DNA from: Candidatus Stahliibacteriota bacterium
GTDB taxonomy: Bacteria > Hydrothermota > Tepidihabitantia > B3-TA06
Direction: 5' to 3'
DNA length: 64,000 nt
NCBI GenBank assembly: GCA_004375895.1
Contig: SOJW01000020.1
Span: 1,170-65,169, forward strand
Shown here: piece after piece, positions 16,711 to 62,853 of the stretch
Numbering within the stretch: the stretch's first letter is position 1
How the letters are laid out: each line of letters opens with the position of its first letter
Made by a program: the position numbers and the translations under genes
Notes under the pieces: model-generated
Seen by the model: the letters and a program-made list of their open reading frames with translations, nothing else
The model's database searches: none
What the model was told of the DNA's origin: nothing

Positions 16711-17558
16711 TATTTCTTCCCCTTCTCCGATTTTGGTGTGTTACGGGTGTTACGGGTGTTACGGGTACGGGCGGGGTCCCCCCGCGAAGGCTTCGCCTTC
16801 GCGGGGGGTTCAACCATCCGGTGGGGTACCTTTCCGTGGAAGATCGCCTCCATCTGGGTCCCGTATAACCGCTGGAAATGCTCCTCATCCCAGATCTCGG
16901 AGGGACAAGCGTGCAGATGCACACTCTTCGCCACGCAGGCCACATCGTCAACGAAACTCGGCACCACCACAAGATCGTGGCTTGCCACCAGTATGGTGAG
17001 GGAAAGTTCCTCCTTCAACTCGCGGATAAGGGAATAGAAGCGGTCCTTTGCCTCAACGTCCGCGCCTGAGGTGGGTTCGTCGAGCAGGATAAGCTTCGGC
17101 TCACCAACAAGCGCACGGGCGATGGCCACGCGCTGCTTCTGCCCGCCGGATAGTGCCCCTACCGGACGGATGGCCACATCCCTAAGCCCCACGCGAGCAA
17201 GCATAGTAAGTGCGATCTCGCGGTCGTGCCTGCCCGCTCGTCTTATGAGACCTAAAGCCGGGTACCGTCCCATGAGCACCACATCCAGGGCACTCACAGG
17301 GAAGCGCCAGTCAACCACGCTCTCCTGGGGAACGTAACCTATCCTGGCGCGCTTGAGATCATAGTAACGCACCCTTCCCTGGGTAGGCTTGATAAGGCCT
17401 GCTATCACCTTGAGAAGCGTTGTCTTCCCGCCCCCGTTCGGGCCTATGAGCGCCGTAGATGAGCCCGCCGTTATCTGGATGTTCACATCATGAAGAGCCG
17501 TGAGCTCTTGAAAGCGTACGCTGACGTCCTCAAGGCTAACCAGGATTTTGGAACTCAC
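16710..17558 (-). CDS. Metal ABC transporter ATP-binding protein (ZnuC/TroB-type) with repeat-encoded C-terminal extension
   Basis: Walker A GPNGGGKTT, signature LSGGQKQR, Walker B LILLDEP; tail EPPAKAKPSRGDPARTRNTRNTRNTPKSEKGKK is encoded by the hairpin + GTGTTACGG array. Confidence 0.85.
   Translation of the reverse strand: MSSKILVSLEDVSVRFQELTALHDVNIQITAGSSTALIGPNGGGKTTLLKVIAGLIKPTQGRVRYYDLKRARIGYVPQESVVDWRFPVSALDVVLMGRYPALGLIRRAGRHDREIALTMLARVGLRDVAIRPVGALSGGQKQRVAIARALVGEPKLILLDEPTSGADVEAKDRFYSLIRELKEELSLTILVASHDLVVVPSFVDDVACVAKSVHLHACPSEIWDEEHFQRLYGTQMEAIFHGKVPHRMVEPPAKAKPSRGDPARTRNTRNTRNTPKSEKGKK
16736..16808 (+). repeat. GTGTTACGG array + GC hairpin element, copy 1
   Basis: gtgttacgg x3 + gtacggg, then ccccccgcgaaggcttcgccttcgcgggggg; lies inside the znuC-like 3' end. 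Confidence 0.85.
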
Positions 17559-38183: not shown

Positions 38184-38818
38184 AAGGCCTCCTCTTTGAT
38201 TAGTCGGACTAAACTGTCTAGTCCCATTCCATCTATTTTTTCCTGAGTCAACCGAGCTGCTGCCAGATAGCCGAGCTTTAAGTCCAACGTATCCTTGCTT
38301 TTAAGCAATGTCTCAATCCTTTCTTTCTCTTTAGGCAAATCTTTCAAACTTACATCCTCTGCTAGCCTCCTCGCCTGCCCGGAACATATCACCGCCAGCC
38401 CCTCGTTGAGCCATAAAGGGACCTCATATGGCTCAAGCACAAGGTGCACGTACTCGTGAACCACTACCTCCTCAAGCACCCCGCGACGTTCAAGAACAGC
38501 CAGGGGCTGAACGATGAGCTCCCCGTTTCTTACCGCCGCACCATGCCAGATAGAACATCCGGTCCAGGCAGCAAAATCCCCACTCGAAGGCGCCACCCGT
38601 AACACACCACCCCGTAACACCCGTAACACACCATTCTCCCACCCTACCCCCATCGAATGATCTTCAAAGTAATCATCAACTACCCTTTCTGAGGTTCTCA
38701 GAACCTCCACCCACCTAGAAATCTCCTGTCGGTTAACTTCTTCCCCCGATGTAATGATTACCCATCTATCCATGGGCACCACCGCGCTCCAGAGAATCGC
38801 CAAGAAAAGCCTTACCAT
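38180..38818 (-). CDS. Peptidase-MA-like metalloprotein (HExxH...NEGLA)
   Basis: VVVHEYVHLVLEP...WLNEGLAV; carries an in-frame GTGTTACGG-element insert (GWENGVLRVLRGGVLRVAPSSG). Confidence 0.6.
   Translation of the reverse strand: MVRLFLAILWSAVVPMDRWVIITSGEEVNRQEISRWVEVLRTSERVVDDYFEDHSMGVGWENGVLRVLRGGVLRVAPSSGDFAAWTGCSIWHGAAVRNGELIVQPLAVLERRGVLEEVVVHEYVHLVLEPYEVPLWLNEGLAVICSGQARRLAEDVSLKDLPKEKERIETLLKSKDTLDLKLGYLAAARLTQEKIDGMGLDSLVRLIKEEAL
38575..38640 (-). repeat. GTGTTACGG element copy 2, inside a coding sequence
   Basis: Minus strand gagaatggtgtgttacgggtgttacggggtggtgtgttacgggtggcgccttcgagtgggg. Confidence 0.8.
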
Positions 38819-55437: not shown

Positions 55438-56291
55438 TGAGATTCAGGATAATACCCGCAATCATCCTTCTTTTATCCGTAATCGCCTGCGACACCACTC
55501 CGGAAACCTACGAGGGTGAACCTAACATCTACGCGGTGCTCACTACCGACTCCTCGTTCGCGTGCATCATGGTTGGAAAAACCACTTCAATAGACGATAC
55601 CCTGACGCTGGAGCCTGATACCATCATGGATACCTTCTGGCGTGACGATACGTTTGAAGTCTGGCCGGAGATAGTTTTCCCGTGGAACGGGGTCAGCGGG
55701 GCTGAAGTCAGTCTCAAACAGGGGGGACACAGATATGTTCTCCTCGAGGATCCCGACTCGGCAGGCTATTACGGTTCCGATTCCATTCAGTTCTCAGCGA
55801 GGAAAACCTGGGAGCTTGAGGTTACCTATCCTTCGGGAGAGGAGATCGAGGCGCAGACCACTATTCCTGGAAACTTCGAGATTACGTCACCTTTGGTCGA
55901 TACCCTTTCGGATACCGACGTCCTGGAGTGGACTCCCTCAGCTCACGCTGCCGGATATCTTATAGAGTTGCTCCAGTGGTTGTCGTGGGAAGATGAGGAA
56001 GAGGATACACTGGTTGTTGATTCTTCTTTTGACTGTCTCATGCTTGTTCAAGCCGATACAACTTCCTTGCCCATGCAGGAGTTGGAGTTATTCGATTATC
56101 TTTGGGCTTGGGCTGACTCTTTGATTATCTTCGTATCTGCTCTGGACACAAACGCTTATGACTACCGGTATTATGGAGAAGATCGCTGGGACCCTGACAT
56201 CCGCGTGGAAGACTACATGCACATCGAAGGTGCTTGGGGTGTGTTCGGCTCCCAGACGGTGGCCTGTTCTCAGCGCTACGTCCTCCGGTGA
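55434..56291 (+). CDS. DUF4249-like lipoprotein (TonB-receptor partner)
   Basis: Lipobox LLLSVIAC; 4-nt overlap with the receptor gene. Confidence 0.55.
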   Translation: MMRFRIIPAIILLLSVIACDTTPETYEGEPNIYAVLTTDSSFACIMVGKTTSIDDTLTLEPDTIMDTFWRDDTFEVWPEIVFPWNGVSGAEVSLKQGGHRYVLLEDPDSAGYYGSDSIQFSARKTWELEVTYPSGEEIEAQTTIPGNFEITSPLVDTLSDTDVLEWTPSAHAAGYLIELLQWLSWEDEEEDTLVVDSSFDCLMLVQADTTSLPMQELELFDYLWAWADSLIIFVSALDTNAYDYRYYGEDRWDPDIRVEDYMHIEGAWGVFGSQTVACSQRYVLR

Positions 56292-56434
56292 TATAAATCC
56301 CGGTCTGAGGGCAGACACCCGACCCTCTGAGGCTCATCCGCTCGGTATTATTCACAAAGACCTACGTGTAGAGAAAGGCCGGGGCTCAGGCCCCGACCTG
56401 GTTTGAGCTGAACCCCTTCTAGGGGAAATTTATG

Positions 56435-56476
56435 CCCGTGTTACGGGTTACGGGTTACGGTGTTACGGGTTACGGG
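56435..56476 (+). repeat. GTTACGG/GTGTTACGG array, copy 3
   Basis: cccgtgttacgggttacgggttacggtgttacgggttacggg; includes the stop codon of the GDH paralogue. Confidence 0.85.
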
Positions 56477-57738
56477 AAGATACCTCGTCTCTTGTAGATT
56501 CTCTCCAGTCTGGTAAGTGCCTCGATGCGTGCCGCGGTGCACCAGTCGGTCTTGAACTCCGCTGCGCGGTCGCGCACCCGGTGGTAAGCGTCCTTCATCT
56601 TGTTCTGCAGTTTGCGGTCTACCTCTTCAAGTTCCCACAGCTCGCTTCGTTTGTTCTGCAGCCACTCGAAGTAGCTCACGATCACGCTGCCGGAGTTGCA
56701 CAGGATGTCTGGGAGCACCTCAATTCCCCTCTCCTTCAAGATCTTTGAGCCATCTCGATCGCAGGGGCAGTCGGCTCCCTCGACCACCAACTTGACGTTG
56801 AGCTTGGGTGCGGTCTGGGCGGTGATCTGATACTCCAACGCGGCTGGGATGAATATATCGGCTTTTGTAGCAAGGAAGGCCTCGTGATCTATCGGTTTTG
56901 CATTGGGGTAGCCTGCTATGCGTCCGTTCTCCTTGTCGTATGTCAAAAGGTCGGAGGGATCGATTCCACGAGGGTTATAGATCGGGCCGGAGGTATCCTC
57001 GACCGCAACGAGTTTTGCTCCTTTTTGATTGAGCAAGATGGAGGTCCAAACACCTACACTTCCGAATCCTTGAACCGTGTAGGCAGCACCCTCAAGATCG
57101 AAGCGGTGACCAGCTGCCCATTCCTCGATGGCAAAGACAAGCCCCTGGCCCGCTGCTTTGTCATGCCCGACGCTGCCGCCCAGGTGGATGGGTTTGCCGG
57201 TGACCACGTGTGTTTTGGCCTGCCTTTTTTCCGGAGGCATGGTAGAGAGGTAGGTATCCAGTATCCAGGCCATAGTCTGGGGGTTTGTGTTCACGTCCGA
57301 GGTGAGTATGTCGTACTCCGCTCCGATGTTCGAGCCAAGGGAGTAGGTAAAGCGGCGGGTGATTCGTTCCACATCAGAGAAGTTGTAGTCAGAGGGGTTG
57401 AACTGGACCCCGCCTGCAGCCCCGCCGAATGGGATACCGGCGATAGCCGCCTTACACGTCATCACAGTAGCAAGCGCGCGCATCTCTCCCAGATCAACCC
57501 AGGGATGAAAGCGAAGTCCGCCCGAGTAGGGACCCATCACGTTGTTGTGCTGCACACGATAGCCAGTGAACATCTCCACCCGACCGTTTGACATCTTAAC
57601 CGGGAAGTTGACGGTAATCTCGTTGGTAGTCTTGGCCAGGATTTTGAGAACCTCACGGTCTAGCTTCATCAAATCCGCGGCATTATGGAGCCCCTCAAGA
57701 ACGTCGCCGTAGAAACCGGTTTCCTTCTTCATCATCAC
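56470..57738 (-). CDS. Glutamate-dehydrogenase-family paralogue lacking the catalytic lysine
   Basis: Full-length Glu/Leu/Phe/Val-DH fold, but IPFGGAAGGVQFNP (K->A) and GPYSGGLR (K->S); GFGSVG Rossmann motif intact. Confidence 0.85.
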   Translation of the reverse strand: MMMKKETGFYGDVLEGLHNAADLMKLDREVLKILAKTTNEITVNFPVKMSNGRVEMFTGYRVQHNNVMGPYSGGLRFHPWVDLGEMRALATVMTCKAAIAGIPFGGAAGGVQFNPSDYNFSDVERITRRFTYSLGSNIGAEYDILTSDVNTNPQTMAWILDTYLSTMPPEKRQAKTHVVTGKPIHLGGSVGHDKAAGQGLVFAIEEWAAGHRFDLEGAAYTVQGFGSVGVWTSILLNQKGAKLVAVEDTSGPIYNPRGIDPSDLLTYDKENGRIAGYPNAKPIDHEAFLATKADIFIPAALEYQITAQTAPKLNVKLVVEGADCPCDRDGSKILKERGIEVLPDILCNSGSVIVSYFEWLQNKRSELWELEEVDRKLQNKMKDAYHRVRDRAAEFKTDWCTAARIEALTRLERIYKRRGIFP

Positions 57739-57742
57739 TCCT

Positions 57743-57845
57743 TACGGTTTGCTGTTACCGTGTGTTACGTGTGTTACGGGTGTTATTTCCTTGTGATTCA
57801 AGCTGATTATGAGAATCCCCCGAAGGGGGGCGGGTGTTACGGGGC
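57743..57845 (+). repeat. GTGTTACGG composite element, copy 4 (between the two GDH genes)
   Basis: gtgtgttacgggtgttatttcctt...tgagaatcccccgaaggggggcgggtgttacgggg. Confidence 0.85.
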
Positions 57846-57848
57846 TGC

Positions 57849-59111
57849 TCATGGGAAGATCCCACGTTCCTTGTATACCGTTTCAAGACGTGAGAGAGCG
57901 ACGATGTAGGCCGCGGTTCGCCAGTCTATGTTGTGCTCTCGAGCCGTATCGCGAACGCGTTCGTAGCCTGCAACGATCTTGCGGTGCAGTTTTCCATCCA
58001 CCTCTTCAAGATCCCAGAACTCGCTGCGCTTGTTCTGCAGCCACTCGAAGTAGCTTACGATCACGCCGCCGGAGTTGCAAAGGACGTCTGGAAGAAGATC
58101 GGTTCCCTTTTCATGAAGAATCTTATCACCGTCCGGATCGGTGGGACCGTTTGCGCCTTCGGCAACCAGCTTCACGTTAAGCATGGGAGCGGTCTTTAGT
58201 GTGATCTGGTTCTCAAGAGCCGCCGGGATGAAGATGTCGGCCTTGGTCGCAAGGAAGGTTTCGTGATCAATAGGTTTGGCCTTTGCGTAGCCGCCAATCA
58301 ATCCCTTATTCTTTTGCGTATACTCATAAAGGTCGTCGGGATCGATCCCCTTTGGATTGGCAATAGCCCCGCTTACGTCCTCGACAGCAACGAGCTTTGA
58401 ACCGTGTGGTTTGAGGAGACGGGACGCCCAGGAACCCACGTTCCCGAACCCCTGAACGAAGTATGCCGCACCCTCAAGATCAAAGTTGGTATCTTTGGCC
58501 CACTGCTCGATGGTAAAGACCACACCCTGGCCAGTAGCCTTGTTGCGGCCTATGCTCCCACCCGACTCGACAGGCTTGCCGGTAACTACATGGACTGCCG
58601 CCTGACGCTCGTGGGCAGGCATGGTGGAGAGGTAGGTATCCAGGATCCAGGCCATTATCTGAGGGTTGGTGTTTACGTCCGGTGCAGGGATGTCGAACTC
58701 AGGCCCTATGTTCGAGCCCAGGGCAAAGGTGAATCGGCGGGTGATGTGCTCAAGCTCGCTTGCCGAGTACTTGAATGGATCGATCTGGATGCCGCCTTTT
58801 GCTCCACCGAACGGGAGGTTCACTATGGCCGATTTCCAGGTCATCCAGGTAGCCAGCGCCCGAACCTCATCAATGTCCACGGCAGGGTGATAGCGCAGCC
58901 CCCCTTTGTAAGGGCCAAGCGCGTTGTTGTGCTGCACCCGGTAACCGGTGAACATCTCGATGTGGCCGTTGTCCATCTTAACCGGAAAGTTGACGATTAC
59001 CTCATTGTTGGTTCTAGCAAGTATCTTGCGGATCTCAGGATCCAGATGCATCAAATCAGCAGCCTTGTTAAACTGCTTGGTTACGTTATCGTAAACGCTC
59101 GCCTTTTTCAT
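57849..59111 (-). CDS. gdhA: Glutamate dehydrogenase
   Basis: GPYKGGLRYH, active-site signature LPFGGAKGGIQIDP, PAPDVNT, GFGNVG. Confidence 0.92.
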   Translation of the reverse strand: MKKASVYDNVTKQFNKAADLMHLDPEIRKILARTNNEVIVNFPVKMDNGHIEMFTGYRVQHNNALGPYKGGLRYHPAVDIDEVRALATWMTWKSAIVNLPFGGAKGGIQIDPFKYSASELEHITRRFTFALGSNIGPEFDIPAPDVNTNPQIMAWILDTYLSTMPAHERQAAVHVVTGKPVESGGSIGRNKATGQGVVFTIEQWAKDTNFDLEGAAYFVQGFGNVGSWASRLLKPHGSKLVAVEDVSGAIANPKGIDPDDLYEYTQKNKGLIGGYAKAKPIDHETFLATKADIFIPAALENQITLKTAPMLNVKLVAEGANGPTDPDGDKILHEKGTDLLPDVLCNSGGVIVSYFEWLQNKRSEFWDLEEVDGKLHRKIVAGYERVRDTAREHNIDWRTAAYIVALSRLETVYKERGIFP

Positions 59112-59123
59112 CTCTTTAGCCTG

Positions 59124-59426
59124 CTAACAATACTCGTCGCACTGCCAAACACCGCCTGCAGGCTTGGGAAAGACGCAGTGATGACGGTTCTCGCAGTTGC
59201 GGCACAGTCCTTTGAACTCCACCTCGTCGGCGGCCTCCGGCTTGGCAACCCTTGGGACTACCTTAGTCTTTGGACCCTCGTAGCCATCGAACTCGTCGCA
59301 GTGCATTATTGGACGAGCGGGGTCACGAGGAAAGGTGCAGGTTGCAGCGTTCTTGCAGGTAGAGCAAAGCCCCCGATACTTCGGCTTAACAGCCTTTTTG
59401 GTCTCTTGAACTGTTGATGTCTGCAT
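59124..59426 (-). CDS. Small protein with two Cys4 modules
   Basis: GLCSTCKNAATCTFPRD...HCDEF and GLCRNCENRHHCVFPKP...QCDEY; AAGGAGG SD; first gene after the sigma-54 promoter. Confidence 0.7.
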   Translation of the reverse strand: MQTSTVQETKKAVKPKYRGLCSTCKNAATCTFPRDPARPIMHCDEFDGYEGPKTKVVPRVAKPEAADEVEFKGLCRNCENRHHCVFPKPAGGVWQCDEYC

Positions 59427-59502
59427 GAAATCCTCCTTTGCGTGTGATTTCTTTTCACGAGCTTTTCCAGGAGCCGTTCTTGTGAGCGACTCACCCCCTA
59501 GC

Positions 59503-59520
59503 TTGCAATATTCGTGCCAG
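59503..59520 (-). promoter_or_regulatory. Sigma-54 (-24/-12) promoter
   Basis: Minus strand CTGGCACGAATATTGCA matches YTGGCACG-N4-TTGCW exactly. Confidence 0.85.
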
Positions 59521-59641
59521 GCTAGCCTAAATGTGAGTTACGATGAGGATGGCTTAGTTAAGTCAAGCTAGATTAAATAGTTAGAAGTGGATGGATGGGC
59601 TTTGGGATGCAGCTTCAGTCTCCCCCTGGATTAAAATTGGC

Positions 59642-59677
59642 GGGGAGATGTGCCCCGGTGGGGAGAAACGCCCCACC
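59642..59677 (-). terminator. Tandem hairpins after the response-regulator gene
   Basis: Minus strand GGTGGGGcgtttctCCCCACC, then GGGGcacatctCCCC, then gccaatttt. Confidence 0.55.
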
Positions 59678-59680
59678 TTC

Positions 59681-61018
59681 TTACTGGGATTCTTCCATCT
59701 TCCTGAGTTTTTCGCGCAAGGTCTTTCGGTCGATCCCCAGTATTTCTGCGGCCTTTGTTTTGTTGCCGTTAACGCTTGCCAACACGTTGCGTATGTGTTC
59801 TGCCTCCACCTCGGCCAATGTCCTTTCAAATCCCTGAGCCTTTGGAGAAAAGCGCATAAGTGCCGGCAAATCCTTAACGTCTATCGTATCTTGCTCCACC
59901 ATAACCACCAGCCGCTGGATTACGTTCTCAAGCTCCCGAACGTTACCGGGCCAGTGGTAGTTCTTTAGAACCTCAAGCGCTTCGTCAGAGAAGCTAGGTG
60001 TGGGTTTGCCAAGCTCCTCTGCAAACTTTTCCGTAAAATGTCGAAGCATCAGGAGTATGTCGTCATCCCTCTCCCGCAGCGGTGGAAGATCAATGGTAAT
60101 GACGTTGAGGCGGTAGTAAAGGTCCTCCCTGAAGCTTTGCTTTTTGACAAGGGCCTGTAGGTCTTTATTTGTTGCGGCAATAATCCTCACATCAACCTTT
60201 TCGGATTTTCGTGAGCCGAGCATGAAGATCTCCTTGTCCTGCAGCACCCGCAAGAGCTTAACCTGCATGGCCGGACTTGTTTCACTGATCTCGTCAAGGA
60301 AGATGGTGCCGCCGTCTGCAGTTTGAAAGAAACCTGCCCTGGTCGTTGCCGCGCCGGTAAACGCACCCTTAACATACCCGAAGAGCTCAGATTCCAGAAG
60401 TTCATGCGGTATAGCCCCGCAGTTGATAGGCACGAAGGGTGGTGAGGCACGCGGGCTTGAGTAGTGGATAGCCCTGGCCACAAGCTCCTTGCCAGTGCCG
60501 CTTTCCCCTGTGATGAGCACCGTAGCCGGGGTTGACGCCGCCTTATGGATGGCGCTGAAGACCTCGCGCATGACCTTTGAGGAGCCGATTATCCCGTGAG
60601 GCGACGGGATATCCTCGGATACCTGCGTGGCCCTGCGCATACGTAGTTTGTCAAGCGCCTTTCTTACCGCCAAGAAAAGCTCCTCGTCGGTAAAGGGCTT
60701 TGAAAGATACTCCTCGGCCCCTTGCTTTACCGCCTGAACAGCACCCTCTACGGTGGCATATCCTGTAATCATCATCACCTCGGTGTCCGCAAGGTTCTCC
60801 CGCACGTATCGCACCAGATCCAGGCCACTTGCCCCGGGCATCTTTAAATCAGTTATCACCAGATCAACCTGGGTGTCTTCAAGCAACCTTAAGGCTTCCG
60901 GCACGTTTTGCGCGGTAAAGACCTGATAACCCTGTGATGTCAGATTACGATCGAGGACCTCAAGGGTATCGGTCGCGTCGTCTACCACCAGGATGCGTTC
61001 CCTTTCAGGTGACGTCAT
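59681..61018 (-). CDS. Sigma-54-dependent response regulator (NtrC family)
   Basis: REC (VVDD...DLKMPG), AAA+ (GESGTGKE, GAFTGA, ESELFGY), C-terminal Fis-type HTH. Confidence 0.92.
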   Translation of the reverse strand: MTSPERERILVVDDATDTLEVLDRNLTSQGYQVFTAQNVPEALRLLEDTQVDLVITDLKMPGASGLDLVRYVRENLADTEVMMITGYATVEGAVQAVKQGAEEYLSKPFTDEELFLAVRKALDKLRMRRATQVSEDIPSPHGIIGSSKVMREVFSAIHKAASTPATVLITGESGTGKELVARAIHYSSPRASPPFVPINCGAIPHELLESELFGYVKGAFTGAATTRAGFFQTADGGTIFLDEISETSPAMQVKLLRVLQDKEIFMLGSRKSEKVDVRIIAATNKDLQALVKKQSFREDLYYRLNVITIDLPPLRERDDDILLMLRHFTEKFAEELGKPTPSFSDEALEVLKNYHWPGNVRELENVIQRLVVMVEQDTIDVKDLPALMRFSPKAQGFERTLAEVEAEHIRNVLASVNGNKTKAAEILGIDRKTLREKLRKMEESQ

Positions 61019-62853
61019 TTGGTCTCCTTGTTAGTTTCATCGCGTCCATCAGGACGCGTAGGTGTGTTACGGGTGTTATTTCCTTTTGAACGGAGCGTAT
61101 GCTCCGAGTAATTGTGAGAATGCCCCGAAGGGGTACGGGTAAGGGGTAGTTTTACGGTGAAGCGTGATCCCTTGCCTTTCTTGCTTTCAACCTTGATTGT
61201 CCCCCCGTGTGAGGTGACGATCCCGTGAACCACGGCCAACCCAAGACCGGTTCCTTGCCCGACCTCCTTGGTGGTAAAGAATGGCAGGAATATCTGTCTT
61301 TGAACCTCCTCGTCCATACCCGTACCCGTATCCTCCACGATCAGAATAACCTCCTCCTCTGTTGCTCTTGTTCTTATGGTGAGCCTTCCTCCGCCAGACA
61401 TTGCCTGGAGTCCATTTACGACCAGATTGACAAGTACCTGGTTCAGCTGTGACGGGTCGGCGGTGATCTCAGCCAGCCCCTCGGTAAGATCGCGCACCAC
61501 CTCGATCCCCTCCTTTTCGCAGCGGCTCTCAAGGAAGTAAAGCCCCTCTTCCACTATCCGGTTAAGATTGACCAGTGTTTTATGGGCGGGCATCTGACGG
61601 GCGAATATGAGAAGCTTCTTTACCACCTCCCTGGCGTGAAGTGCTGCGTTTTCGATCCTCCTCATGTCCTTGCGCGCCTGTTCAGGCAACCCATCGGACT
61701 TGCGGGCAAGCTGGGCAAATCCAAGGATAGCGCCCAGGGGTTCGTTAAGCTCGTGTGCCACGCCTGCTGCAAGCTGGCCCAGAGTAGCCAGGCGATCCGC
61801 GTGACGAAGCTGTTCCTCAAGCTTGGTCCGTTCGGCTTCCCACTGCCTGCGTTCGATTATAAGCACGAGCTGAGCGGCCACCGCGTCCAGAAGGCTCTGC
61901 TCCTCTGCGATGAAAAGCTCCACCTCAAGCTCAGGCTTCTCCTCTGAGTAGAACACCTCCACCACGCCTCGTTTTACTCCATCGACTACGATATCCGCGG
62001 CCAGCCGGTAGCGGGTTTCGGTACATCTCGGCGGGCAGCAGTAATCCTTATCATCCAGTATTATCCTAGCCGAGGCTATATCCGGGTATCGCATGGCTGG
62101 TGGCAACAAATCGGCTATGCCGCCAAGGATCTTCTCGAGAGATATGCCCGGTTCCTCAACCAGTCGGGCTATCCCGTAAAGGCAGTAGAGTTCCTTGACG
62201 CGCTCACGCAGTTTGGTCTGCGCTCTGCGGCCTGCCATTGCTATCCCTATGGTCTGGGCAACGCCCTCGTAGAACTCTATCTCTTCAACGGTAAAGAAGT
62301 TCTTCTCTCTGCTTTTTAATTGAATCAGCCCGTTATTGTTATCGTCTATTACAAAAGGGATCATTGCGAGTGAGGAGTAATCACCGGTAGACGCCAGATC
62401 AGTAGGGGTTTCCTCGCCCGTTTGGGAACTCAGCGCCTCCTTCAGGTTGCCAGTCCAGAAGCTGCCGGTTTTGGTGAAGTAAGGGTAGGAGCTGTCAAAG
62501 TTACCACCTAACAGTATCTTACAGGTTTGTTCCAGGCTTGAACCATCCGGCAGGCATGGGAGCGCCAGCCCCTTCTCATCCTGTATATAGGGGAGTTTCT
62601 CGAACTGAAAGCGCTCATTGGGTTCCATCCTGGCTTCCCACCGGTAGTGCAGCTTGCCGTCGGTGATGCGCAGCTCAACCGCATCGCATCCGGAGAAGCG
62701 GATGAGCATCCTTGAGACCTCGCGCTGGAACTCAATCCTCGGCGCGCCGCGGTTGGCGAACTGCAGTATCCTCCGCGAGAGTGCCGAGAAATCGTGAGAT
62801 CTCTTGCTTGCCCTCGCTTTGGTGTCAACCGACCTTGAGCTTTTGCCTGTCAT
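61015..62853 (-). CDS. Cytoplasmic GAF-containing sensor histidine kinase with repeat-encoded tail
   Basis: H-box HELNEPLGAI, N/G boxes, no TM segment; last ~45 aa (...NNTRNTPTRPDGRDETNKETK) are encoded by GTGTTACGG element copy 5; ATGA overlap with the regulator gene. Confidence 0.88.
   Translation of the reverse strand: MTGKSSRSVDTKARASKRSHDFSALSRRILQFANRGAPRIEFQREVSRMLIRFSGCDAVELRITDGKLHYRWEARMEPNERFQFEKLPYIQDEKGLALPCLPDGSSLEQTCKILLGGNFDSSYPYFTKTGSFWTGNLKEALSSQTGEETPTDLASTGDYSSLAMIPFVIDDNNNGLIQLKSREKNFFTVEEIEFYEGVAQTIGIAMAGRRAQTKLRERVKELYCLYGIARLVEEPGISLEKILGGIADLLPPAMRYPDIASARIILDDKDYCCPPRCTETRYRLAADIVVDGVKRGVVEVFYSEEKPELEVELFIAEEQSLLDAVAAQLVLIIERRQWEAERTKLEEQLRHADRLATLGQLAAGVAHELNEPLGAILGFAQLARKSDGLPEQARKDMRRIENAALHAREVVKKLLIFARQMPAHKTLVNLNRIVEEGLYFLESRCEKEGIEVVRDLTEGLAEITADPSQLNQVLVNLVVNGLQAMSGGGRLTIRTRATEEEVILIVEDTGTGMDEEVQRQIFLPFFTTKEVGQGTGLGLAVVHGIVTSHGGTIKVESKKGKGSRFTVKLPLTRTPSGHSHNYSEHTLRSKGNNTRNTPTRPDGRDETNKETK
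61061..61150 (+). repeat. GTGTTACGG composite element, copy 5
   Basis: gtgtgttacgggtgttatttcctt...tgagaatgccccgaaggggtacgggtaagggg. Confidence 0.85.

Follow-up and report, generated by a model that had tools for sequence, protein, structure and literature searches.

A full-length glutamate dehydrogenase paralogue without the catalytic lysine beside its canonical twin in a predicted sigma-54 operon of candidate phyla

Why would a bacterium keep, directly behind a glutamate dehydrogenase (GDH) gene with a complete active site, a second full-length GDH gene in which the active-site lysine is replaced? The question is raised by a stretch of 64,000 nucleotides (nt) from a Candidatus Stahliibacteriota bacterium (GenBank assembly GCA_004375895.1, contig SOJW01000020.1, positions 1,170 to 65,169 of the forward strand), called the window below. 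On its minus strand, the list of open reading frames (ORFs) gives five consecutive genes (62853-56470), encoding in this order a sensor histidine kinase, an NtrC-type activator, a small protein with two four-cysteine modules (Cys8), the canonical GDH1 and the lysine-less GDH2. Here we describe the residues and conservation of the two dehydrogenases, weigh what GDH2 may do, and turn to the promoter, the regulators and the Cys8 family.

GDH1 and its lysine-less paralogue

Both proteins are members of the Glu/Leu/Phe/Val dehydrogenase superfamily, with both Pfam domains over the gathering threshold (PF02812, 187.8 bits in GDH1 and 160 bits in GDH2, cut-off 25.3; PF00208, 237 and 210.9 bits, cut-off 23.4), and their alignment over 419 residues, at 67% identity, has a single gap that lies distant from the motifs. 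GDH1, identical to a database protein annotated as Candidatus Stahlbacteria (P0035), is a full member of the canonical hexameric GDHs (Thermotoga maritima, Pyrococcus and Thermococcus; PDB 1B26, 1GTM and 1EUZ) and has all catalytic motifs, including K89 and the active-site lysine of the PROSITE pattern PS00074 (GG[SAG]K[GV]). GDH2 has the length and both Pfam domains in common with these enzymes, but lacks the PROSITE active-site lysine and the gamma-carboxylate lysine of GPxKGG. Going from GDH1 to GDH2, GPYKGGLR becomes GPYSGGLR (K89 region), PFGGAKGG becomes PFGGAAGG (K125 region), GRNKATGQG becomes GHDKAAGQG (R205 region, with R205 replaced by His) and EGANGPT becomes EGADCPC (N373 region).

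The two lost lysines are K89, which binds the gamma-carboxylate, and the catalytic K125 of PS00074 (Clostridium symbiosum numbering); in the C. symbiosum enzyme, K113 is the alpha-carboxylate lysine and D165 the catalytic aspartate. GDH2 retains D165 and K113, as it does the beta2 Glu and GxGxxG. With phmmer, GDH2 aligns without gaps to T. maritima GDH (1B26, 341 bits), and Ser and Ala stand opposite the lysines of GPAKGG and GGGKGG. The first-pass annotation, made from the letters of this DNA, had read these motifs in both genes, and all its statements about them hold: both lysines of the second GDH are replaced, with no offset in gap-free alignments to T. maritima GDH and to GDH1, and full length and the dinucleotide fold are kept.

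The nearest database relatives of GDH2 (P0001-P0010, 72-97% identical) all lack both lysines, with Ser or Phe at the K89 position and Ala or Tyr at the K125 position, and have a set of fixed changes in common (R205 to His, GFGNVG to GFGSVG, PAPD to LTSD, EGADCPC, and E415 to Arg). Beyond them, at 67% identity or less, the matches start with canonical GDHs; four further lysine-less proteins occur in the match list, and the three that were looked up each lie in the same five-gene arrangement.

For a wider comparison, a tandem set of 24 loci comprises the window, four metagenomic loci and 19 of the best 80 Cys8 loci (from 499 in species-representative genomes, obtained by a profile scan with one genome per species), and falls into 19 clusters when grouped at 90% identity and into 9 when grouped at 70%. 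These loci span WOR-3/Stahlbacteria, Zixibacteria, Ignavibacteria and others, and the order kinase, activator, Cys8, first GDH (g1), second GDH (g2) is kept across them, with a g1-g2 spacer of 110 nt in the window and ~10-250 nt elsewhere. The first GDH is canonical (K89 and K125) in 24/24 loci, and so are the single GDHs of Cys8 loci (8/8). The second GDH lacks K125 in every one of the 24 (Ser in 11, Ala in 4, Tyr in 3, Asn in 3, Met in 2 and His in 1) and K89 in 20, where Ser, Phe, Gln, Glu, Thr, Tyr, Ile or His takes its place.

Much else of the enzyme is retained in the g2 set. All 24 proteins have D165 and the beta2 Glu, and 23/24 have K113. The glycines on either side of K125 do not vary, except that the first of the two in front of it is Ser in 2/24, and the three GxGxxG glycines are kept, with one Ala in 1/24. 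The C-terminal RGIFP is conserved in g1 and g2 alike, and in 93 alignment columns both families have the same residue with a conservation of 95% or more. From the more divergent g2 proteins, R205, N373 and the GRxxATG motif have disappeared as well. Besides the loss of K125, the most consistent g2-specific change is E415 to Arg (17/24), beside the C-terminal Arg.

The ratio of nonsynonymous to synonymous substitution rates (dN/dS) is 0.08-0.14 for g2 and 0.05-0.16 for g1, and the region most alike between the partners is domain I, the hexamer core (70% identity). The comparison supports a view of the lysine-less g2 as a conserved paralogue under selection and not a decaying copy. In a tree rooted on T. 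maritima GDH, g2 forms one clade (bootstrap 42/100) with a topology that partly mirrors that of g1 and with branches 2-4 times longer. The simplest history would be that one old duplication took place and the two copies then diverged together; a possible alternative is repeated loss, in which case long-branch attraction would have drawn the g2 sequences together.

Two further observations concern the g2 sequences. In several g2 lineages, cysteines have appeared within or close to what was the active site, with the Trp at alignment position 89 changed to Cys in 10/24; the cysteines of the window GDH2 are at residues 93, 322, 324 and 398 (420-residue numbering), and the sites in the g2 alignment are positions 7 and 89. 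A general gain of cysteine in g2 to match Cys8 was considered and rejected, since the count per g2 protein runs from 0 to 8 and the gains are clade-specific. In two WOR-3 loci (UBA6260, TA06; L069:7298-9739 and L086:7298-9739), Cys8 is followed by a 409-residue protein that has no Pfam match but is similar to GDH by tblastn, and next by a 402-residue protein with weak ELFV domain scores; the two may represent a still more eroded GDH-like pair.

Possible roles of GDH2

We lean towards a mixed g1/g2 hexamer with g2 as a non-catalytic regulatory subunit. GDH1 would be the catalytic glutamate dehydrogenase of an operon serving the nitrogen/glutamate node, and GDH2, judging from the loss of K125 throughout the tandem set, would be unable to perform amino-acid dehydrogenation while keeping the fold, oligomerisation domain, dinucleotide site, alpha-carboxylate lysine, catalytic aspartate and RGIFP tail. 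Co-assembled with GDH1 into mixed hexamers, it would serve as a subunit that binds ligands and sets the activity, direction or allosteric response, and with the change of E415 to Arg it may alter an interface effector pocket near the C-terminal tail. Because the lysine positions vary while the fold, oligomerisation domain and coenzyme motifs persist, g2 resembles a pseudoenzyme that may still bind ligands and partners. Its role appears tied to GDH1, since g2 always lies directly 3' of a canonical GDH and never in the 35 Cys8 loci with a NuoEF/GltB-like gene set. It is from this pseudoenzyme signature and this tie to GDH1 that the mixed hexamer is favoured.

The GDH RocG of Bacillus subtilis controls the transcription factor GltC, and GDH2 might comparably be a free-standing sensor or 'trigger' that binds glutamate, 2-oxoglutarate or NAD(P)H at its disabled active site and then, by signalling to the kinase, the activator or Cys8, adjusts transcription. 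Such a role would suit a protein that has retained its ligand-binding features, has lost the catalytic lysine and is always accompanied by the kinase-activator-Cys8 cassette; we nevertheless consider it unlikely, as every g2 stands immediately behind a canonical GDH (24/24), none is present in the NuoEF/GltB-like loci, and g2 is best conserved relative to its partner in the hexamer-core domain. The first-pass annotation had named a regulatory or heteromeric subunit and a new chemistry side by side. For a conserved paralogue under selection the subunit is the option favoured, and we regard the other, an active enzyme with a new lysine-free reaction or mechanism (for example on a non-dicarboxylate substrate or with new Cys, His or Asp residues), as improbable. 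To our knowledge, every characterised Glu/Leu/Phe/Val/Trp dehydrogenase retains the active-site lysine (PROSITE PS00074). A new mechanism should fix residues family-wide, and it is disfavoured because the residues replacing K125 (A/S/Y/N/M/H) and the equally variable K89 differ between orthologues, with no consistent new catalytic residue; the divergent g2 proteins also drop R205, N373 and the GRxxATG motif, and the cysteine gains are clade-specific. What would fit an active enzyme is the retention of D165, K113, the glycine loops and the dinucleotide fold, the purifying selection on g2, and R205 to His, N373 to Asp and EGADCPC, which are fixed in the clade of the window.

To the idea that GDH2 is a recently disabled, functionless duplicate heading for loss we give almost no credence. 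Two key residues are lost and g2 evolves ~2 times faster than g1, but the simple decaying duplicate that the first-pass annotation had set up as the counter-case is refuted by the full length without frameshifts, by a dN/dS of ~0.1, and by the loss pattern in 24/24 loci, which is the same in each of them down to 43-49% identity with GDH1.

Several points weigh against the mixed hexamer. We infer the inactivity of GDH2, its co-assembly with GDH1 and its allosteric effect alike from sequence comparison. An enzyme of altered chemistry could equally be expected to keep D165, K113 and the NAD site, and in the g2 clade of the window the fixed R205 to His, N373 to Asp and two new cysteines (EGADCPC) look more like remodelling than loss. 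The bootstrap for g2 monophyly is low (42/100), and long-branch attraction is possible. Cys8, the third member of the proposed system, is without a significant family match in Pfam, NCBIfam and PDB profile searches, and AlphaFold2 runs with 29 and 90 sequences gave no confident structure for it (mean predicted local distance difference test score, pLDDT, 53.2 and 52.5).

In Thermus thermophilus, GDH is a hetero-hexamer of the inactive regulatory GdhA and the catalytic GdhB (PDB 3AOE; Tomita et al. 2010, 2011, as cited in PMC9570180 and bioRxiv 10.1101/2025.10.31.685773). The Thermus enzyme is activated by leucine and, through a pseudoenzyme resembling adenine phosphoribosyltransferase (APRT), by AMP (PMC9570180; bioRxiv 10.1101/2025.10.31.685773; PMC12364357), and equivalent C-terminal Arg, Tyr and Pro residues line the leucine allosteric site at its subunit interfaces (PMC9570180). 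The present locus is similar in having two adjacent 50-kDa-class GDH paralogues in one operon, one of them non-catalytic (here by prediction), and in the R-x-x-(Y/F)-P C-terminal tail, kept in both g1 and g2. It differs in that a dedicated sigma-54 two-component cassette and Cys8 accompany the GDHs, where Thermus has the APRT-like AMP sensor. The gene order is also reversed, with the active gene first here, whereas in Thermus gdhA precedes gdhB. Moreover, GDH2 scores 241 bits to GdhA (3aoe_E) against 311 to GdhB (3aoe_A) and 341 to T. maritima GDH, a ranking that holds for three g2 proteins (212-241, 256-311 and 310-341 bits, respectively). On these lower scores to GdhA, g2 was rejected as a GdhA orthologue. 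An independent origin is drawn from the fact that g2 is nearest to its own partner (67% identity); the comparison indicates that the pairing of an active GDH with a dead paralogue arose here independently of Thermus, the sole system known so far.

Dead paralogues that activate an active twin are also known as prozymes, in the S-adenosylmethionine decarboxylase (AdoMetDC) and deoxyhypusine synthase of trypanosomatids (PMC5201418, PMC3663545). The likeness lies in an inactive paralogue that selection maintains and that acts by joining its active twin in a hetero-oligomer; the prozymes belong to other enzyme families and to eukaryotic parasites, and the complex proposed here is a predicted one.

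Sigma-54 control and the Cys8 protein

The features of the locus are collected in Table 1. Judging from the Shine-Dalgarno spacing, the likely start of GDH2 is the ATG at 57732, which gives 420 residues. The GAF_2 match of the kinase is slightly below the Pfam cut-off; the protein has no hydrophobic, transmembrane-like segment (maximum Kyte-Doolittle 19-residue mean 1.37) and carries the H-box HELNEP at residue 367. The activator has GAFTGA at residue 218 and its receiver Asp within DLVITDLKMPG.

Table 1. Coordinates of the locus, as positions in the window
Feature	Positions	Strand	Description
Soluble sensor histidine kinase	61015..62853	-	612 amino acids (aa); HisKA, HATPase_c, GAF-like N-terminal region (Pfam)
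NtrC-type sigma-54 enhancer-binding response regulator	59681..61018	-	445 aa; Response_reg, Sigma54_activat, AAA_lid_14, HTH_8 (Pfam)
Candidate upstream activator site	59639..59674	-	two tandem 18-nt GGGG-N7-CCCC copies; direct repeat search
Sigma-54 -24/-12 promoter	59504..59519	-	TGGCAC-N5-TTGCA, TGGCACGAATATTGCA; 77 nt 5' of the Cys8 ATG
Cys8 protein	59124..59426	-	100 aa; two Cys4 modules; first gene of the operon
GDH1 (g1)	57849..59111	-	420 aa; canonical 50-kDa-class glutamate dehydrogenase; presumed catalytic subunit
g1-g2 spacer	57739..57848	-	short GC hairpin and CGTAACAC repeats at 57762-57778 and 57834-57841
GDH2 (g2)	56470..57738	-	422-aa ORF; full-length GDH paralogue without K125 (Ala) and K89 (Ser)
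(C)CGTAAC(AC) repeat array	56438..56467	-	directly after the g2 stop codon

The -24/-12 element claimed by the first-pass annotation ahead of the Cys8 gene is found at that place and is unique: over the 64 kb, TGGCAC-N5-TTGCW is matched once, where 0.06 matches are expected. Many loci carry a -24/-12 element ahead of the Cys8 gene, and in related ones TGGCA[CT]-N5-TTGC lies at a similar distance 5' of it; in the window the Cys8 gene has the strong Shine-Dalgarno sequence AAAGGAGGA. The same annotation had taken the adjacent NtrC-type activator and soluble kinase as the regulators of the operon, which is borne out by synteny and a promoter kept across many loci; control of the operon by the adjacent two-component pair at the sigma-54 promoter is thus supported, at the level of gene order and motif.

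The tandem GGGG-N7-CCCC copies begin directly past the activator stop codon, ~120-155 nt upstream of the -24 element, and are a good candidate for the binding site of the activator. Their GGGG and CCCC arms are kept in six related loci, as are the -24/-12 element and a portion of the 5' untranslated region (UTR); the exact tandem form is absent from distant loci, the strict pattern occurring in 2/66 (close relatives and one other locus). The kinase-activator pair would activate the promoter, probably through these two sites ~130 bp upstream. A riboswitch or attenuator is unsupported: Rfam gave no match over 56200-59800 at E values up to 1, and neither the 5' UTR (z -0.51) nor the g1-g2 spacer (z -0.13) folds better than shuffled sequence. 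A promoter and terminator scan of 56250-59750, which includes the stretch past g2, found no sigma-70-like promoter and no minus-strand terminator.

The 100-residue protein had been described as two cysteine modules with eight cysteines in all, and this is confirmed in the family: Cys8 consists of two GLCxxCx5CxFP(R/K)...C(D/E)E(F/Y) modules whose eight cysteines are invariant across 90 homologues, while a ninth, C-terminal cysteine of the window protein is not conserved. Longer homologues show no fusion to a known domain; three-module versions occur instead (P0149, P0152 and P0213), so that the ~28-residue Cx2Cx5C...C unit is repeatable. The dN/dS of Cys8 is 0.1-0.2 in five pairs with measurable dS, and 0.54 in the near-identical pair of the window and the related Stahlbacteria contig L015, where dS is 0.016. 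Neither the window protein nor any of the 90 members reaches the cut-off of a Pfam or NCBIfam family; the best sub-threshold match is RseC_MucC (E 0.0085, well under the gathering score, in 22/90 members), and a PDB profile search with Cys8 gave chance-level matches only. In these searches no curated model or solved structure places Cys8 among the known Cys-rich metal or Fe-S domains (rubredoxin, zinc ribbons, ferredoxins, RseC, WhiB and NifU).

The family is large, with 1,913 representatives at 50% identity (E at most 0.001) and 1,825 clusters at 90% identity (E at most 1e-5), the listed members of which are all 'hypothetical' or unnamed and have no Pfam domain. It occurs in Stahlbacteria/WOR-3, Zixibacteria, Ignavibacteria, Planctomycetota, Verrucomicrobiota, Desulfobacterota, Acidobacteriota, Cloacimonadota, KSB1 and others. 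In the neighbourhoods of the best 80 loci, an NtrC-type activator lies 5' of Cys8 on the same strand in 60/67, and a kinase homologue does so in 46 of the 51 with at least 4 kb of upstream sequence. On the 3' side, 27/64 loci have a GDH, including the large Bac_GDH type, and 35/64 have a set of NuoE-like, NuoF-like(-GltD-like), 2Fe-2S/4Fe-4S and Glu_synthase-domain proteins (Pfam), so that one or the other, GDH or the NuoEF/GltD/GltB-like set, follows in 62/64.

This second type of Cys8-headed operon is found in Planctomycetota, Desulfobacterota, Ignavibacteria and others (L022:7300-12200, L034:4172-7631, L044:7877-12047, L004:4389-10334 and ~30 more). Its products are a NuoE-like 2Fe-2S protein, a NuoF-like protein that is often fused to a GltD-like flavoprotein (~1,060-1,120 aa), a 2Fe-2S/4Fe-4S protein of 225 aa and a Glu_synthase-domain protein of 529 aa, and together these look like an uncharacterised multi-subunit complex of the glutamate-synthase type. 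In two loci (L004:1904-4334 and L006:1518-3840), two Cys8 paralogues (111 aa; 123-151 aa) flank a single canonical 439-aa GDH, and this Cys8-GDH-Cys8 stretch sits upstream of NuoEF/GltB-like genes.

Since the regulators are its constant and the enzymes its variable neighbours, Cys8 probably belongs to the regulatory cassette. As a probable metal-binding protein, it would carry two Cys4 metal or Fe-S sites and give feedback or a redox/metal input to the regulators, and would not be part of the enzyme; its place after the kinase-activator pair, with glutamate enzymes of different kinds behind it, speaks for a regulatory or redox function and against a chaperone dedicated to GDH. PspA, which acts on PspF, is a small feedback regulator encoded by the first gene of a sigma-54 operon, and Cys8 is comparable, by analogy only, as a small protein first in a sigma-54 operon and immediately 3' of the activator gene; there is no sequence similarity between the two, and Cys8 is Cys-rich and presumably metal-binding. 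Alternatively, Cys8 could be an electron carrier or an assembly factor for the downstream enzymes and no regulator, a view suggested by the eight invariant cysteines in Cx2Cx5C...C modules, by NuoE/NuoF-type Fe-S/flavin genes within ~60 nt 3' in 35/64 loci, and by weak sub-threshold resemblance to RseC, NifU and WhiB-type Cys motifs. We find this possible but doubtful, as Cys8 is equally conserved before plain NAD(P)-dependent GDH genes that need no Fe-S partner (27/64) and its most constant neighbour is the upstream activator (60/67).

The spacer and the end of the operon carry a short repeat, CCGTAACAC (which is GTGTTACGG on the plus strand), located between the GDH genes and past the second. 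Its position between the genes was correctly noted in the first-pass annotation, but a signal specific to the operon is ruled out, the repeat being dispersed over the window: CGTAACAC has 12 copies against ~1 expected, grouped at five places, namely short tandem arrays at 16738-16763, 38598-38629, 56438-56467 and 57762-57841 and a lone copy at 61064. The (C)CCGTAACAC array at 16738-16763 lies behind a GC-rich hairpin, just 5' of a gene start. The spacer is also a boundary in the comparison with L015. The activator-Cys8-g1 tract (window 61011-57831) is 96% identical to that contig (dS 0.02-0.08), the GDH2 stretch (57780-56373) 86% (dS 0.51) and the kinase stretch (62853-61142) 79-90%, and the drop from 96% to 86% falls in the repeat-bearing spacer. 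This mosaic of identities suggests a recent recombination tract that ends between GDH1 and GDH2.

A cassette for the glutamate node

Literature searches gave no account of lysine-less GDH paralogues in these phyla, nor of the Cys-rich protein, and as far as the searched libraries go the kinase-activator-Cys8 cassette is undescribed. Tentatively, and with more doubt than confidence, it may be read as a widespread sigma-54 cassette for the glutamate/2-oxoglutarate node, in which Cys8 would be a small Fe-S or zinc redox co-regulator and g2 a ligand-sensing subunit. Cys8 reliably marks sigma-54-controlled operons for GDH or for the NuoEF/GltD/GltB-like set, and is a candidate for a new regulatory or redox component.

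Pairing an active GDH with one that is predicted to be dead is, across a wide range of candidate phyla, the rule, and the K125-less g2 proteins offer natural variants for studying how pseudo-subunits may tune a hexameric GDH. Annotation pipelines label g2 'glutamate dehydrogenase', and for this reason metabolic reconstructions of these lineages would over-count active GDHs. If the cassette reading is true, nitrogen assimilation would be coupled to redox state in many uncultured phyla, among them WOR-3/Stahlbacteria, Zixibacteria, Ignavibacteria, Planctomycetota, Desulfobacterota and others.

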